A stretch of DNA of 22,823 nucleotides, taken from the NCBI GenBank assembly GCA_964344235.1, contig CAYFMJ010000012.1, positions 1 to 22,823 of the forward strand, in the 5' to 3' direction. Below the pieces are notes generated by a model. It saw nothing but the letters and a program-made list of their open reading frames with translations, was not told where the DNA came from and ran no database searches. Both the position numbers and the translations under genes were made by a program. Positions 128-7,467 of this stretch are shown one piece after another (positions within the stretch are counted from its first letter, which is position 1; each line of letters starts with the position of its first letter). This stretch comes from an uncultured Methanosarcinales archaeon (GTDB taxonomy: Archaea; Nanobdellota; Nanobdellia; Woesearchaeales; GW2011-AR9).

Positions 128-235
128 TTAATTTGATTGAATCCGACGTCTACGTTTAGCCTTTTTCATCTTTTTACGTTGCCATTTCCAACGCATTTGG
201 CCTTTTTTCTTCCATCGACGTGAACTTCGTTTCAT
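128..235 (-). CDS. rpl41e: Ribosomal protein eL41 (eS32), archaeal form, 35 aa
   Basis: Hand translation MKRSSRRWKKKGQMRWKWQRKKMKKAKRRRRIQSN. WKKKGxMRWKW matches archaeal L41e as recalled. Below the ORF-track size cutoff. Confidence 0.88.
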   Translation of the reverse strand: MKRSSRRWKKKGQMRWKWQRKKMKKAKRRRRIQSN

Positions 236-275: not shown

Positions 276-809
276 TCAAACGGAGATGATTACGAAAATT
301 CTTTTGTGATTTTGGGCTTTGTTGTTGATGTATTTGACAAATCGTTGCGTATTATTGCGTTTGACAATTGTTACGGTGTTCTGTTGTATTGGAATTTTCG
401 TGTAGTCCTCTGAATTGTTTGTGTAAATAATCGAACCACCCCATGCTTCGTTCCAGTTTTCTGTAATGTCGAGAATAATATCAACGCCAGGTGGTTGTGT
501 TGTGGTGTCATTTAGGATTATGTAATCTTTATGTTTGAATTGGAGAAGGGTTTGTTTGGGGGAGTTTATTTTTTTGTTTATGATAATAGAAACGAATTTG
601 AAAAGATTGTCAGGAAGAATTGAAGTTTCTGCTTTGGCGTAGGAATGAGTGAGCGGATTTTTTTCGTGTTGTAATTTTGTTTTTGTCGCCGTGTCTTTTA
701 TGACATTATAGGATTCTTCATCAAAGAAATCAAAAAGGACAACATGGCCATCCGTGGAGAAAGCTTGTTGTATGTGTTCAATGTTTTTGTTGTAATAATC
801 ATTAATCAT
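276..809 (-). CDS. Degenerate 2OG-oxygenase-fold protein resembling the OGFOD1/Tpa1/Ofd1 C-terminal domain
   Basis: Start placed at ATG 809 (SD-like GGTGG upstream, 8-nt overlap with the upstream gene). Blocks FKHKDYIILND, DIILDITENWNEAWGGSIIY and NTVTIVKRNNTQRFVKYIN parallel the recalled OGFOD1 C-domain. No HxD...H triad. Confidence 0.75.
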   Translation of the reverse strand: MINDYYNKNIEHIQQAFSTDGHVVLFDFFDEESYNVIKDTATKTKLQHEKNPLTHSYAKAETSILPDNLFKFVSIIINKKINSPKQTLLQFKHKDYIILNDTTTQPPGVDIILDITENWNEAWGGSIIYTNNSEDYTKIPIQQNTVTIVKRNNTQRFVKYINNKAQNHKRIFVIISV

Positions 810-1371
810 GGTAAAACCACCCAGTGAGTGCAATTCTATCTGTGTTTGTAAGGACTTCTTCTACTTCGTGAAATGATTGCGGTGTAACTTTGAAGAAGAC
901 AAGGGTGCTACGTTGTGGTTGGACTCTCTTGTTTATTGTTGTTGGCATGTTGTTGTTTGAATTATATAATGTAAGTGCACCGCCACCGGATTGTTTCAGG
1001 GTTGAGAGATAGAAAATGAACGCGACTGCTCGACTTTCAAGTTGATCGTCGTGTGGGAGAAGGTAATGAGTATTTTTGTAGATATTACCAAAGAGGTCTA
1101 ACTTTGTTGGGGAAAGTTTTGTGTTTGTATGTTGTTCTATTAATTGGATAAATTCTAGCGAGAGTAATGTTTCTTTAATTGTTTGAAATTCTTTGACGTT
1201 GTTAAGGTCTTTCGTTTGTAAAAAAGTAAAGAGGTCAGAATTGAGGAGGGTAAAAGATTGTTGTTGTAATGAAGCGAGTAAATGTTTGACATTTGCTTCT
1301 GGGAGAAAGTCTTTGATGACTCCATGGAGGAAAGGTTTTTTGTAAAGTTTTATTTCTTTTGAAAAGTCCAT
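802..1371 (-). CDS. 2OG-Fe(II) prolyl hydroxylase, OGFOD1/Tpa1 catalytic-domain-like
   Basis: H107-x-D109...H168 metal triad and R179. Blocks PFLHGVIKDF, SDLFTFLQTKDL, LLPHDDQLESRAVAFIFYL, GGALTLY, LVFFKVTPQSFHEVEEVL and RIALTGWF. Confidence 0.88.
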   Translation of the reverse strand: MDFSKEIKLYKKPFLHGVIKDFLPEANVKHLLASLQQQSFTLLNSDLFTFLQTKDLNNVKEFQTIKETLLSLEFIQLIEQHTNTKLSPTKLDLFGNIYKNTHYLLPHDDQLESRAVAFIFYLSTLKQSGGGALTLYNSNNNMPTTINKRVQPQRSTLVFFKVTPQSFHEVEEVLTNTDRIALTGWFYHD

Positions 1372-1444
1372 AATCTTTCTTTTGTCTAGTACTATAAAAC
1401 TTTTTCCTGCATAAGTATTTATAGAAAATCTTTATCGAAAGAGC

Positions 1445-1918
1445 ATGTTATTAACTGATCTGTTAAACTACCACGCTCATTTGCGGGGAAGACTGAGTAG
1501 TAGAGAAGTTCACAAAGGCCTAGAACATGGAAGATTATATTGTACTGAAAAAAATCTCAGGAGTATTATCGAAAGCAGAGTTAAAGAGGACTTTAGGCGA
1601 TATTTAAGAGAGCATTTCTCGCCACCAGAGGGAGTAAATGAATGTATTCAGGATATTTCTGTGAGTTATCGTATAGTTGAGGTTGTCCCCTATGTGGCAA
1701 TTTCTGTTTTCTGTATTGACCAGGCGCTTATTAAGGCAGATAAAGGTAGGAGAGCTATTCTGAAGGAGAGGCAATTCCCAAACTATTTATGTTGGATTCC
1801 AAAATTCGCGGAAGGTTATCCTTTAAGGGTAGGGTTTAAAGCTCTTTTTTACGGAGGGAAGGCAGAAGATTTGCCAGAAGATGACTCGGGGGATCCATAT
1901 ATTGGAGCTGACGTGTAG
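1445..1918 (+). CDS. Hypothetical protein, 157 aa
   Basis: ATG-led ORF filling the gap between genes. No recognised motif. Confidence 0.65.
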   Translation: MLLTDLLNYHAHLRGRLSSREVHKGLEHGRLYCTEKNLRSIIESRVKEDFRRYLREHFSPPEGVNECIQDISVSYRIVEVVPYVAISVFCIDQALIKADKGRRAILKERQFPNYLCWIPKFAEGYPLRVGFKALFYGGKAEDLPEDDSGDPYIGADV

Positions 1919-2485: not shown

Positions 2486-4189
2486 ATGGATTTTGCTCAA
2501 TTGGTTGAGGTGTATGAAGAGTTAGAGAAAACAGCTTCTGGGAATAAAATTAGAGAGGTTTTATCTGAGTTTTTTAAAACCGTCCCAAAGGAAGATATTG
2601 GGTTAGTTGCGTATTTGACGCTTGGAAAAGTTGCTTCCGATTATGAAAGTGTTGTCTTGGGGTTAGCGGAGAAGTCCGTGATGAAAGCGATCGCTAAGAC
2701 CGCTGGGGTTTCTGAGAAAAAAATTAGAGAGTTAGTTCATAAGAAAGGAGATGCAGGTTTAGCAGCGGAAGAGGTGTTGAAGAAAAAACCAGTTACATTA
2801 GTTCCAGTAGGGAAGTTAACAATCCATGATTTATTTGATACACTCCACAAGATTGCAAAGACTTCTGGGAGTGGTTCGCAGGAAAAGAAAGAGAATTTGT
2901 TGGTATCAGTTCTACAAAAAACGTCAGGGAGTGGTGCTCGTTATGTTGTAAGAATTGCCCTTGGTACATTACGAATGGGAGTGGCGGAGATGAGTGTGAT
3001 TGATTCGTTAGCAATTGCGTTTACCGGTGAGAAGAGTAACAAGAAGTTGTTAGAGCGAGCGTATAATATTTGTCCAGATGTGGGGGAGATTGCTACAGTG
3101 CTGGCAAAGAAAGGTTTGAAAGGGTTGGAGAAGATCGAGGTAGAAGTTGGTAGGCCAATTCGAATGATGTTGGCGCAACGTGTACAGGAGTTGGAAGATG
3201 TGCAGAAAAAAATGCCAGGAGAAGTAAGTGTGGAAGGGAAATACGATGGTGAGAGAGTGCAGATTCACAAGATGAAGAATGGAGAAGTCATGTTATTCTC
3301 CCGACGGTTAGATCAAACAACAGCGCAGTTTCCAGATTTAGTGGATCATGTGAAGAAGCATGTAAAGGCAAAGGAGTTTGTGATTGAGGGGGAGATTTTA
3401 GCGATTGATGAAAAAGGGAACCCACTACCATTCCAGACATTAATGCAACGACGTCGGAAACATGATGTTGAGAAATATGTCCAAGAAGTGCCGATTCAGT
3501 TGAAAGCGTTTGACTTATTATTTGTTGATGGCAAATCGTTTATCCATGAACCGTATGAAAAACGGATAGCGAAGTTGCGCAAGATTGTCAAAGAAGGAGA
3601 GGGAGTGTTGTTAGCTGATGAGATTGTAACAGATGATGTGGAGAAGATTGATGAGTTCTTCCATTCGATGTTAGATCATGGTTATGAGGGTATTATGATT
3701 AAGAACTTACAGGGAGAGTATCAGGCTGGAACACGAGGGTGGAATTGGATTAAGTGGAAGAAAGAATATGTGCAAGATATGAGCGATACATTTGATCTTG
3801 CAATTGTCGGAGCGTTTTATGGTAGAGGTAGGAGGAGTGGAGGATATGGTGCGTTGTTATGTGCATGTTATGATTCTGTTAATGAGAAATTTGTGACAGT
3901 ATGTAAATTAGGTACTGGTTTCACGGACGAGATGCTTGCAGGGTTAGGGAAGAAGTTGGATTCGTGTAAGGTAAAGGTGAGACCGAAGAATGTGGATTGT
4001 AAAAAGGAGATGACGCCAGATGTATGGTTCTCGCCGGAAGTTGTGGCAGAAGTGTTAGCTGCAGAGATTACCAAAAGTCCATATCATACTGCAGGTGTGG
4101 CGTTACGGTTTCCACGATTTGTAAAGTTTCGAGATGATAAGAGTGCAGAGCAAGCAACGACGTTACAAGAAGTGAGGGAGATAGTATGA
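2486..4189 (+). CDS. lig: ATP-dependent DNA ligase, archaeal type
   Basis: Motif I EGKYDGER, then EGEIL, AFDLL, EGIMIK, WIKWK, LRFPRF. 567 aa. Confidence 0.97.
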   Translation: MDFAQLVEVYEELEKTASGNKIREVLSEFFKTVPKEDIGLVAYLTLGKVASDYESVVLGLAEKSVMKAIAKTAGVSEKKIRELVHKKGDAGLAAEEVLKKKPVTLVPVGKLTIHDLFDTLHKIAKTSGSGSQEKKENLLVSVLQKTSGSGARYVVRIALGTLRMGVAEMSVIDSLAIAFTGEKSNKKLLERAYNICPDVGEIATVLAKKGLKGLEKIEVEVGRPIRMMLAQRVQELEDVQKKMPGEVSVEGKYDGERVQIHKMKNGEVMLFSRRLDQTTAQFPDLVDHVKKHVKAKEFVIEGEILAIDEKGNPLPFQTLMQRRRKHDVEKYVQEVPIQLKAFDLLFVDGKSFIHEPYEKRIAKLRKIVKEGEGVLLADEIVTDDVEKIDEFFHSMLDHGYEGIMIKNLQGEYQAGTRGWNWIKWKKEYVQDMSDTFDLAIVGAFYGRGRRSGGYGALLCACYDSVNEKFVTVCKLGTGFTDEMLAGLGKKLDSCKVKVRPKNVDCKKEMTPDVWFSPEVVAEVLAAEITKSPYHTAGVALRFPRFVKFRDDKSAEQATTLQEVREIV

Positions 4190-4536
4190 GAACGGTTATT
4201 CTTTTAGTGGTTATATTGGGTGTTTTATTGAGTGGGTGTGGTAATGAGTTAGTGGCATGCACAGAGGATGCGAAAATATGTAGTGATGGTAGTGTGTTAG
4301 TGCGGGAAGGTGTTGATTGTACATTTCCAGATTGTCCCGATGAACATACGTGTTTAGATGCTGAGAGAGAAGTGGATGCGTGTCCAGAGATATATCAGCC
4401 AGTCTGTGGTTGGTTTAATGAAGAGGTTAAATGTGTAACGTATCCTTGTGCAGCAACGTATAGCAACGGTTGTTTTGCATGTCAGAATGAAGAGGTTAAG
4501 AGGTGGACGGAAGGAGAATGTCCGGAAATAAGGTAA
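4186..4536 (+). CDS. Cys-rich lipoprotein with a Kazal-like module
   Basis: Signal peptide with lipobox LSGC. CTEDAKICSDGS...CTFPDCP module followed by CPEIYQPVCG...TYSNGCFAC. ATGA overlap with lig. Confidence 0.75.
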   Translation: MRTVILLVVILGVLLSGCGNELVACTEDAKICSDGSVLVREGVDCTFPDCPDEHTCLDAEREVDACPEIYQPVCGWFNEEVKCVTYPCAATYSNGCFACQNEEVKRWTEGECPEIR

Positions 4537-4547
4537 AAAAGAAAAAA

Positions 4548-4883
4548 TTAGTTGGTGTCGTAAGGGTGTAGTCTTATTCTTCGACCTTCATACAGTAAAG
4601 ATGAACCATCAACAGATGCTCCTTCAGCTAAAAATCTTTCCTGAACTGCATCAACTTCTCTGGTAGGTACACGAATAAGAGCCCCAGTAACAGCATATGA
4701 AGTACCGAACATAGAAGAAAGCGTTCCACTCAAGTAAACTTGTTCTTCACTGACCCCTACAATTTGCGCCAAGTCTCTTTGAACACTATCTTGGTGGTCT
4801 AGTGAGCGACCTATCCTTTGTCGTTCAGCCATCATTCCCGCAGTTGTACCGTGGCCAGCCAACGTTGTTTGTAATCCTGTCAT
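4548..4883 (-). CDS. Hypothetical protein, 111 aa
   Basis: ATG-led ORF with SD-like GGAGG upstream. No recognised motif. Confidence 0.6.
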   Translation of the reverse strand: MTGLQTTLAGHGTTAGMMAERQRIGRSLDHQDSVQRDLAQIVGVSEEQVYLSGTLSSMFGTSYAVTGALIRVPTREVDAVQERFLAEGASVDGSSLLYEGRRIRLHPYDTN

Positions 4884-5002: not shown

Positions 5003-5584
5003 ATGCCTGCAAAAAAGAGTGGTATGGAAGCGCAATTACAGAAGATTTCTCGCAGATTAGGGAAGATTGAACGAGAGTTAAGCACGATTGAAAGAGTGGA
5101 GAAGAAAGTAGAAGCGGAAGAGCGGTTAGAGTTGAAAAAGCAGGAAGAGATTAGGAAAGAAGAGAGAAAGATTGAAAGGGCATTGTTTACGTTAGGGAAA
5201 TTTACATTCAAGAGAAAACACTTATTGGAATTAATTCGAGGAACAGCAGGAGCATTTCTGGGAGTAGGATTGGGAAAGAGTCTATTGAGCTTTTCGGGAT
5301 TAGCAGAAACGTTACCGTGGTGGAATATTATTGGTATTTTCATATTTATTCTGGTCGTGTCTACATTATTGATTTACAAGAATGAGCATGATTACGTGCA
5401 GAAAGAGGGTATAAGCGTTGTGTGGAAGAAGTTGTTATTCTTGTATATCATTGCGTTTGTTGTAGAGTTCTTCGCGCTGTGGTTGTTTGGCGGGATTCCT
5501 GGATCTGGCGTGATATTAGCGAAGATGATGATTATTGGTTCCTATCCAGCGATGGCAGGAGCAGTGAGTTTTAGTATTATTTAA
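5003..5584 (+). CDS. Membrane protein with N-terminal coiled coil (possibly DUF2391-like)
   Basis: Charged heptad N-terminus followed by about four hydrophobic segments. The family guess is weak. Confidence 0.7.
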
Positions 5585-5637: not shown

Positions 5638-7467
5638 ATGTCTTTTGAAAAGCTTGGATTGAAGTGTGGTATTGAAATTCATCAGCAGTTAGAGGGTAGA
5701 AAGTTGTTTTCTCACACACCGACATTAATTCGAGATGATGAGCCAGATTACAAAGTTGTTCGGAGTCTAAGGGCGTCAGCAGGAGAATCGGGAAAAGTTG
5801 ACGTTGCAGCGGCACAAGAGCAAGCCAGAGGTAAGCGGTTTGTGTATGAAGGATATCATGATTCTATTTCGTTAGTTGAGTTAGATGAAGAACCACCGCA
5901 TGCGATGAGTGGAGATGCATTATACACATCGTTACAATTTTGTACACTTGCTGGATCGGTTGTATCTCCGGTTGTACAAGTAATGCGGAAGACTGTTGTA
6001 GATGGTTCAAATACATCCGGTTTTCAGCGAACTGCGTTAGTTGGTAGAGGGGGGAAGATTGAAACATCAGAAGGAGATGTGCGAATTGCTAACGTGTCGG
6101 TAGAAGAAGATGCGTGTCGGATTATTTCGGAAAGTGCCGAGGAGAAAGTGTATCGTTTGGATCGGTTAGGCATTCCGTTAATTGAAATTGGAACAGAACC
6201 AGATATTAAAACGCCGGAACAATGCCAGGAAGCGGCAAAGAAAATTGGGATGTTGTTGCGTTCGTTGTCAGGTGTAAAGCGTGGATTGGGAACAATCAGA
6301 CAAGATGTTAATGTGTCAATTATTGGAGGTACGCGAATTGAGATTAAAGGAGCACAGGATTTGAAGATGATTCCAACATTAGTCTCGTTGGAAGCAAAAC
6401 GACAGGAGGAGTTATTGAAGATTAAAAAAGAGTTGTATCACCATAGATTGAATGATTTTGAAGTGTTTGATTTAACCGTTTTATTACAGGATTGTGAGTC
6501 AAAGCGGGTTGTTGAAACGATTGGTAATGGCGGGAAAGTGTTAGGAATAAAGTTGCATGGATTTGCGGGAATGGTTGGCAGGGAATTACAACCAGGTTAT
6601 AGAGTTGGTACGGAATTTTCTGGCAGAGCAAAGGTGAAAGCAGGCGTCGGAGGAATTTTCCATTCTGATGAATTACCGAATTATGGGATTACAGAGAAAG
6701 AAGTGAAGTTAATTCGGAAGAAATTGAAGTGTACGTTGGAAGATGCGTTTGTGTTAGTGGTTGCTTCAGAGGAAAGAGGTAGGGTCGCTTTGGAAGCGGT
6801 GCATGAACGAGCTAAAGAATTGTTTAAGGGAGTTCCAAAAGAAGTGAGGAAAGCAAATGCCGATGGGACAACGTCATACATGCGGCCAATGCCGGGAGCT
6901 GCACGAATGTATCCGGAAACGGATGTGCCGTTAGTTGAGCCGGATGTTAGTAGTGTGGAGGTTCCAGAGTTGTTAGAAGAGAAGCAAAAACGGTTTGTAA
7001 AAGAGTATGGGTTAAGTAATGATTTAGCAGCGTTTATTGTAAAGTCGGATAAAGTGATGTGGTTTGAAGAATTTGTTCAAAAATTTCCGAAGATAAAAGC
7101 AGCGTTTATTGCGGATGTGTTAACAGGGATGTTGTTAGAGATTAAACGGAAGTATAGTGTGGATGCCGGTGTTTTGGTAAAGGAAGATTTTGAGAAAGTG
7201 TTTGAATATTTAGCGCAGGATGTGATTCACAAAGATATCGTGTTAGATGTGTTGATTGACATGATTAAAGGAGAGTTTAATGTTGAGAAATATAAAGGTC
7301 TTAGCACTGAGGAGATTCATGCTGTGGTTAAAGAAGTTGTTTCTGCTCATAAAGGAGCGCCAATGGGAGCGTTAATGGGCATGTGTATGAGGAAGCTTGC
7401 TGGGAAGGCTAGCGGCAAAGTTATTTCTGAAAGTTTACGTGAGATTATGAAAGAAGGGCATGTGTAG
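5638..7467 (+). CDS. gatE: Glu-tRNA(Gln) amidotransferase subunit E
   Basis: GLKCGIEIHQQL, RKTVVDGSNTSGFQRT, LDRLGIPLIEIGT, GLGTIRQDVNVSI, RPMPGAARMYPETD, plus the GAD insertion. Confidence 0.97.
   Translation: MSFEKLGLKCGIEIHQQLEGRKLFSHTPTLIRDDEPDYKVVRSLRASAGESGKVDVAAAQEQARGKRFVYEGYHDSISLVELDEEPPHAMSGDALYTSLQFCTLAGSVVSPVVQVMRKTVVDGSNTSGFQRTALVGRGGKIETSEGDVRIANVSVEEDACRIISESAEEKVYRLDRLGIPLIEIGTEPDIKTPEQCQEAAKKIGMLLRSLSGVKRGLGTIRQDVNVSIIGGTRIEIKGAQDLKMIPTLVSLEAKRQEELLKIKKELYHHRLNDFEVFDLTVLLQDCESKRVVETIGNGGKVLGIKLHGFAGMVGRELQPGYRVGTEFSGRAKVKAGVGGIFHSDELPNYGITEKEVKLIRKKLKCTLEDAFVLVVASEERGRVALEAVHERAKELFKGVPKEVRKANADGTTSYMRPMPGAARMYPETDVPLVEPDVSSVEVPELLEEKQKRFVKEYGLSNDLAAFIVKSDKVMWFEEFVQKFPKIKAAFIADVLTGMLLEIKRKYSVDAGVLVKEDFEKVFEYLAQDVIHKDIVLDVLIDMIKGEFNVEKYKGLSTEEIHAVVKEVVSAHKGAPMGALMGMCMRKLAGKASGKVISESLREIMKEGHV

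Follow-up and report, generated by a model that had tools for sequence, protein, structure and literature searches.

Enzymes of the OGFOD1/Tpa1/Ofd1 family are single chains that hydroxylate the proline of the QPNSA loop of ribosomal protein uS12 (Pro62 in human) at the decoding centre. Human OGFOD1 (PDB 4NHX/4NHY) is the trans-3-prolyl hydroxylase of uS12/RPS23 Pro62 and Drosophila Sudestada1 is alike; Tpa1 of Saccharomyces cerevisiae and Ofd1 of Schizosaccharomyces pombe are uS12 prolyl 3,4-dihydroxylases (PDB 3KT1, 4NHK, 6E0T). [quoted passage not shown] The window studied here, i.e., the whole stretch of 22,823 nt of contig CAYFMJ010000012.1 (GenBank assembly GCA_964344235.1), comes from an archaeon placed by GTDB in the Woesearchaeales and carries on its minus strand two overlapping open reading frames (ORFs). 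ORF-A (802-1371; 189 aa, ATG start) encodes the counterpart of the OGFOD1 N-terminal domain, a putative catalytic double-stranded beta-helix (DSBH) subunit, and ORF-B (276-809; 177 aa from its ATG) encodes a non-catalytic DSBH subunit corresponding to the C-terminal domain of OGFOD1 and Ofd1. What is observed is the homology of both halves, a complete set of catalytic residues, a two-gene arrangement that is conserved among relatives, and the substrate motif. The pair is real and well supported as a split version of a known family of enzymes, in a domain of life where the literature reports its absence. That the two genes together make a split OGFOD1/Tpa1/Ofd1-type enzyme with the proline of the organism's own uS12 KQPNSA loop as its likeliest substrate is an explanation to which we give somewhat better than even chances.

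An earlier annotation made from the letters of the window, referred to below as the sequence-only reading, had claimed that such a system was undescribed. The claim stood in so far as the literature calls the family eukaryote-only, and a full-text search of an incomplete collection found no paper linking OGFOD1 or Tpa1 to archaeal taxa. It did not stand in so far as the automatic annotation of the Joint Genome Institute (JGI) already names some homologues 'Rps23 Pro-64 3,4-dihydroxylase Tpa1-like'. The widespread archaeal form presented here contradicts both the restriction of the subfamily to eukaryotes (PMC4396695) and the statement that such modifications are not common in archaea (PMC4543633).

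Two subunits and their predicted complex

ORF-A scored 94 bits against the Pfam family 2OG-FeII_Oxy_4. Its best sequence match in the PDB, as determined by phmmer, was human OGFOD1 (4nhx, chain 69-258, E 7e-23), followed by Tpa1 (E 4e-14), and not a generic bacterial prolyl 4-hydroxylase (P4H); the block quoted in the sequence-only reading, LLPHDDQLESRAVAFIFYL against LLCHDDELEGRRIAFILYL, was reproduced in the alignment to 4nhx. The AlphaFold model of ORF-A had a predicted local distance difference test (pLDDT) value of 96.0, and its top Foldseek match was again OGFOD1, with a template-modelling score (TM) of 0.90 at 35% identity. The TM values were 0.82-0.88 with Tpa1 and ~0.72-0.76 with PHD2 and bacterial P4Hs, the latter at 18-20% identity. 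The Fe ligands of ORF-A are H107, D109 and H168 and the 2OG ligands are Y121 and R179, which align with H155, D157, H218, Y169 and R230 of OGFOD1, respectively. H107, D109, H168 and R179, the HxD...H triad and 2OG-binding arginine already recognised from the letters, were invariant across 29 archaeal ORF-A homologues.

Ten residues of the OGFOD1 substrate groove have been listed, and the substitutions L95A, Y96A, L152Y and R162A lowered uS12 hydroxylation in cells (PMC4396695). When this list was mapped through the alignment of ORF-A with 4nhx, the pairs (OGFOD1/ORF-A) were W236/W185, R162/R114, L152/L104, D140/D92, Q100/Q52, Y96/F48, K91/L43, L95/L47, L159/L111 and D156/D108. Eight of the ten residues are identical, including the equivalents of L152, L95 and R162, and one more is a conservative replacement (Y96 to F48). 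ORF-A also has a short hairpin that aligns without gaps to the 14-residue hairpin 88-101 of OGFOD1; the hallmarks of the PHD and PPHD type are missing, the hairpin being short and the protein ending at the last DSBH strand.

ORF-B was assigned to the Pfam family Ofd1_CTDD (PF10637) at 42.4 bits, above the cut-off of 27. It matched the C-domain of OGFOD1 (4nhx, chain 459-547, E 7.7e-6), and its AlphaFold model (pLDDT 95.9) had OGFOD1 (TM 0.81) and the C-terminal domain of S. pombe Ofd1 (6e0t, TM 0.80) as top Foldseek matches. Conversely, a profile of archaeal B sequences scored eukaryotic C-domains at 90-155 bits. In the alignment to 4nhx, N100 and T102 of ORF-B stand in place of the first His and of the Asp, in agreement with the earlier statement that the second gene has the fold signature without metal ligands. 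The position of the distal His would be that of V158, as placed by the pseudo-symmetry of the interface model (A 167-174 vs B 157-164) rather than by alignment. Conserved residues of the ORF-B surface strands are Y160, N162, N144 and G125. Scores of 94 bits for ORF-A and 42.4 bits for ORF-B, and the recurrence of the same gene order in 91 of 93 non-redundant loci from other genomes, show that the match is not due to chance.

The two genes are divided where the domains of the eukaryotic enzyme meet. The N-domain of OGFOD1 ends at residue 238 and the C-domain starts at 270 (PMC4396695; the chain numbering of 4nhx is the native numbering plus 20). ORF-A ends at the equivalent of OGFOD1 238 and ORF-B starts at about 271, so the split falls exactly at the boundary between the N-terminal domain and the linker. 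The claim that both ORFs follow the domains of OGFOD1/Tpa1/Ofd1 in the same order thus proved correct, the two being specific homologues.

When ORF-A and ORF-B were modelled together with both alignments, the interaction prediction score from aligned errors (ipSAE) was 0.80 (0.81, 0.80 and 0.80 in three runs) against 0.03 for the best of three controls; the ipSAE mark applied is reached by 58 of 80 solved complexes and by 2 of 110 mismatched pairs. Contacts agreed at 100% between runs, and the pLDDT of the partners was at least 89. In the modelled interface, residues 100-107 and 167-174 of A touch residues 94-99 and 157-164 of B, and the A hairpin 46-49 takes part as well; these segments are the hairpin and DSBH strands II and VII of both domains. 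These contacts agree with the minor-sheet packing of the two domains described for OGFOD1 (PMC4396695). The model supports binding, and ORF-A and ORF-B may form a heterodimer.

Based on these results, ORF-A would be a prolyl hydroxylase dependent on Fe(II), 2OG and O2, and ORF-B a catalytically dead paralogous domain that would dock onto ORF-A by way of the minor beta-sheets, in the manner of the C-terminal domain within the eukaryotic single chain. The overlap of the two genes would probably couple their translation. The likeliest substrate would be a proline of the uS12 made by the organism itself, in the KQPNSA loop that lies at the decoding centre of the ribosome, and in a cell that is exposed to O2 without respiring it, modification of uS12 would track the supply of oxygen, iron and 2OG.

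Gene layout, distribution and descent

The ORF-A stop codon TAA and the ORF-B start codon ATG share an 8-nt overlap, ATGATTAA (802-809, minus strand). On that strand the junction reads ...TAC CAT GAT TAA, with ATG ATT AAT in the +1 frame, and the sequence-only reading had correctly reported co-oriented genes with this overlap, its quoted CATGATTAA including ATGATTAA. An alternative ORF-B start is the TTG at 833, which would give 185 aa. The overlap points to coupled translation and to both subunits being made in equal amounts. By direct reading, a TATA-like archaeal box, TTTTATAG (1392-1399, minus strand), is centred ~25 nt upstream of the ORF-A ATG, and from this position a leaderless or near-leaderless A-B transcript would be expected. 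A scan for bacterial promoters and terminators gave only chance-level results, such models being uninformative for archaea. The reading frame of ORF-A is closed by a stop 20 codons before its ATG, so no longer form is hidden there. Among the sequencing runs sharing words with this DNA, no RNA run was listed; there were two DNA runs, with a word share of 0.12.

The Ofd1_CTDD family was detected in 56 of the 401 sampled genomes of the source phylum, all 56 in the class of the source genome, and four model archaea that served as controls gave no match. Scanning one genome per species yielded 108 relatives. The 80 that were kept belong to Woesearchaeota, Nanoarchaeota or Pacearchaeota, with three Heimdall/Kari Asgard genomes, and three are 'bacterial' records. 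The survey of synteny, called for when the pair was first noticed, showed A followed by B on the same strand and directly adjacent in 91 of 93 non-redundant loci from two archaeal superphyla. The two genes overlap in 74 of the 93 (by 8 nt in 32, 11 nt in 22, 4 nt in 8 and 1 nt in 6) and are 1-43 nt apart in 17; in the remaining two (L084 and L109) they are separated by 0.8-1 kb with an inserted gene. The single polypeptide of the OGFOD1 family, a fused A-B, occurs in none of the 93 archaeal loci. Longer relatives of ORF-A, as a fused form would be, were also sought by word matching and none turned up, which is weak evidence by the method's own grading. With a profile of 27 B sequences, 2226 cluster representatives were matched at E <= 0.001, and of the best 150 listed nearly all were 170-210 aa long and most were unfused, the long ones among these 150 being eukaryotic OGFOD1.

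Several apparent carriers outside the archaea were considered and discarded. The loci labelled bacterium, Acidobacteriota or Alphaproteobacteria come from genomes of 1.1-1.3 Mb that encode eS27 and are mislabelled archaea. Many DPANN-like genomes of ~0.8-1.3 Mb carry the label 'uncultured Methanosarcinales archaeon', and their sequences nest among Woesearchaeota; the public labels of these assemblies are unreliable. A fused prokaryotic form of 426 aa (P0071) was rejected as an archaeal fusion intermediate, its nearest relatives all being eukaryotic (40-43% identity) and its position lying inside the eukaryote clan. It is encoded at L035:8001-9281 (+) on the Logan contig SRR6202010_42297, a gene-dense, prokaryote-like sequence of 23 kb whose pyruvate kinase is Bacteroidota-like, and judging from these sequences the gene is possibly a eukaryote-to-bacterium transfer. 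Other fused forms of ~415 aa were truncated gene calls on picoeukaryote contigs.

In a joint tree of the N- and C-domains, all N-domains were separated from all C-domains with 100% support, with archaeal A grouping with the eukaryotic N-domains and archaeal B with the C-domains. Given this result, the duplication took place before the archaeal and eukaryotic forms diverged. A quick paralogue-rooted tree in which the eukaryotes were nested in DPANN was rejected, as the tree keeping the archaeal N-domains together was 76.6 log-likelihood units better (p-value of the approximately unbiased test, p-AU, 0.98), and therefore paralogue rooting gives no direction. In a concatenated tree (50 rows, LG+C20 PMSF), with a eukaryote sample consisting mostly of Opisthokonta and Amoebozoa, the eukaryotes formed one clan (100/98), and the Asgard clan (95/93) fell within the archaeal clan (96/96), not beside the eukaryotes. 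Asgard sequences as the sister of eukaryotes were absent from every free tree; a tree in which the two were constrained together was 6.83 log-likelihood units lower and was not rejected (p-AU 0.37). Pre-fusion ancestry, ancient transfer in either direction and later fission may thus stand side by side as readings of the origin of the pair. These trees bear on the timing of duplication and fusion relative to eukaryogenesis and do not settle it. It is doubtful that oxygen-exposed DPANN and some Asgard archaea carry a uS12 hydroxyproline made by an A/B heterodimer whose two-gene form is ancestral to the fused OGFOD1/Tpa1; if it were true, oxygen-linked tuning of decoding would predate eukaryotes.

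Oxygen, substrate and alternative explanations

Searches of the source genome (1.19 Mb in 37 contigs, 96% complete) detected neither a haem-copper oxidase nor cytochrome bd nor rubrerythrin; it does have genes for two peroxiredoxins and for a superoxide dismutase of the Fe/Mn type. Genes of the glutamate dehydrogenase and isocitrate dehydrogenase types, both of which it carries, could supply 2OG. Superoxide dismutase was found in 230 of the 401 sampled genomes of the phylum, i.e., in 54 of the 56 pair carriers (the exceptions being G021 and G199) vs 176 of 345 non-carriers; the lists were compared by eye and the relatives are not independent, so these figures are descriptive only. Three unpublished genomes (G359, G242 and G395) are non-carriers with superoxide dismutase and touch only the background figure. 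With superoxide dismutase in nearly all carriers, the pair appears to mark oxygen-exposed, non-respiring DPANN lineages and not strict anaerobes, and the earlier framing of an O2-dependent enzyme in a usually anaerobic lineage is weakened accordingly.

A second small ORF resembling 2OG-Fe(II) oxygenases is located in the same genome on contig 3 at ~11.7 kb (L034:1552-1986, minus strand; 144 aa, HTD motif). It scored 22.7 bits on its own, below the Pfam cut-off, and 38.7 bits when the genome-wide scan read through one TAG. The superoxide dismutase and the peroxiredoxins are encoded ~3-4 kb away on the same contig, and the ORF is flanked by what we take, from the look of the translations rather than from a family library, to be diphthine synthase-like and Elp3-like genes. 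Possibly it too modifies the translation apparatus in an oxygen-dependent way.

The genome's own uS12 gene is on contig 2 (L002:1414-1833) and encodes 139 aa with a KQPNSA loop, VEAKQPNSAMRK; the target loop is identical to the eukaryotic one. From the conserved groove together with this loop, the strongest indication obtained here, we infer the same substrate as for OGFOD1, and judged from the sequences a function of ORF-A and ORF-B on uS12 is likely. Several observations weigh against this explanation. The uS12 gene sits on another contig and shows no linkage to the pair, and the QPNSA loop is universal in archaea, so that its presence cannot discriminate between substrates. The groove residue K91 is L43 in ORF-A and K in most archaeal homologues. 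Relative to most homologues, the start of ORF-A is shifted ~15-20 residues downstream, which leaves it without their N-terminal W-I-x-x-x-Y-L segment. Occurrence of the pair is patchy (10 of 41 genomes of the source family), and the pair is therefore dispensable. The complex model resembles the solved single chains of OGFOD1 and Tpa1, and its high score may reflect this likeness, or recall of it, rather than binding. More generally, the heterodimer, the substrate and the physiological role are deduced from sequences and models.

A genuine split hydroxylase of the OGFOD1 family could instead act on another ribosomal protein or a translation factor, which we consider unlikely. The related single-domain PPHD of Pseudomonas acts on EF-Tu (PDB 4iw3, among the fold matches), additional substrates have been sought for fission-yeast Ofd1 (bioRxiv 10.1101/363747), and both the absence of a genomic link to uS12 and the change from K91 to L43 in the groove would fit such a target. 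However, the eight groove residues shared with OGFOD1 include the equivalent of the family-specific L152, the target loop of uS12 does not differ from the eukaryotic one, and ORF-A is far more similar to OGFOD1 than to PPHD or PHD2. That ORF-A acts alone, with ORF-B as an independent regulatory or adaptor protein or as a decaying gene rather than a structural partner, appears improbable in view of the adjacency, mostly with overlap, of A and B in 91 of 93 loci over two archaeal superphyla. ORF-B has a confidently predicted fold (pLDDT 95.9), its conserved strands (Y160, N162, N144 and G125) form the predicted interface, and the C-domain of OGFOD1 holds the equivalent hairpin of the N-domain rigid (PMC4396695). 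Such independence would nevertheless be in keeping with the mostly single-domain prolyl hydroxylases of prokaryotes (PMC4396695), with the other gene between A and B in 2 of the 93 loci and with the faster evolution of B (mean column identity 32% vs 41% for A).

Very improbable, in our view, is a substrate other than protein, whether a nucleic acid dealkylated in the manner of AlkB or a small molecule such as free proline or another metabolite. Tpa1 was once proposed as a DNA dealkylase, a role that in vivo repair did not support (PMC6746446). Among the fold matches of ORF-A are the small-molecule oxygenases PolD and PasI, at 15-21% identity vs 35% for OGFOD1, and the weak match to the NCBIfam family NF041706 YhhC (cyclophane-peptide 2OG oxygenase) was rejected as an assignment at 41.2 bits, far below the curated cut-off of 150. 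The conservation of the peptide-binding groove residues in ORF-A also argues for a protein substrate. The split OGFOD1-type enzyme acting on uS12 is thus the explanation preferred here.

Neighbouring genes and comparison with known systems

Downstream of ORF-B by 40 nt and on the same strand, a 35-aa basic ORF (128-235, minus strand; MKRSSRRWKKKGQMRWKWQRKK...) matches the archaeal ribosomal protein L41e/eL41 (PDB 6skf, E 1e-4) and has its own TTTATAAA box ~30 nt upstream. The eL41 gene also stands beside the pair in two other loci (L037 and L054) and at a greater distance in two more (L039 and L040). A ribosomal-gene linkage through eL41 was rejected, since the adjacency was limited to the closest relatives (6 of 106 loci, with a narrow motif). 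On the other side, five ORFs had no Pfam family at E <= 0.001 (1445-1918, plus strand; 1920-2471, minus; 4186-4536, plus; 4548-4883, minus; 5003-5584, plus), and a DNA ligase gene (2486-4189) and a GatE-like gene (5638-7467) are ordinary; none of these neighbours has an evident functional tie to the pair.

The split form dissects the eukaryotic enzyme naturally: omission of one subunit would be enough to test what its puzzling, inactive C-terminal domain does. It also raises the questions of decoding-centre hydroxylation in archaeal ribosomes and of oxygen as a cosubstrate or signal in non-respiring, host-dependent archaea.

Among the described systems, Pseudomonas PPHD (PDB 4IW3/4J25) and PHD2/EGLN1 belong to the same superfamily and share the chemistry, i.e., prolyl hydroxylation with Fe(II), 2OG and O2, and they target a translation or signalling protein, as proposed for the pair. 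They differ in having no partner DSBH domain, in their long flexible finger loop (23-25 residues) and C-terminal helix and in their induced-fit binding, and their similarity to ORF-A is limited (18-20% identity, TM ~0.72-0.76). Tpa1 and Ofd1 are closer, with an E value of 4e-14 and TM of 0.82-0.88 between ORF-A and Tpa1 and a TM of 0.80 between ORF-B and the Ofd1 C-terminal domain (6e0t). Unlike the pair, they have long linkers and inserts, and they have eukaryote-specific partners (Ett1/Nro1, Sre1, eRF1/eRF3 and Pab1), for which the source genome was not searched. We know of no archaeal homologues of these partners.

OGFOD1 is one chain of 542 residues, whereas the pair consists of two polypeptides from overlapping genes with 366 aa in total, and lacks both the 31-residue linker (239-269) and the acidic disordered insert of ~60 residues in the C-domain (371-430). 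The pair is hosted by an archaeon, which has neither a nucleus nor a terminal oxidase, and the activity of the pair is a prediction from its sequence. On the other hand, the order of an active DSBH followed by an inactive one is that of OGFOD1. ORF-A shares with it the HxD...H motif, the equivalents of Y169 and R230, most of the groove (8 of 10 residues) and the short hairpin in place of the PHD-type finger loop, and ORF-B resembles the C-domain at a TM of 0.81, with the two subunits predicted to pack through strands II and VII of both domains as in the human enzyme.

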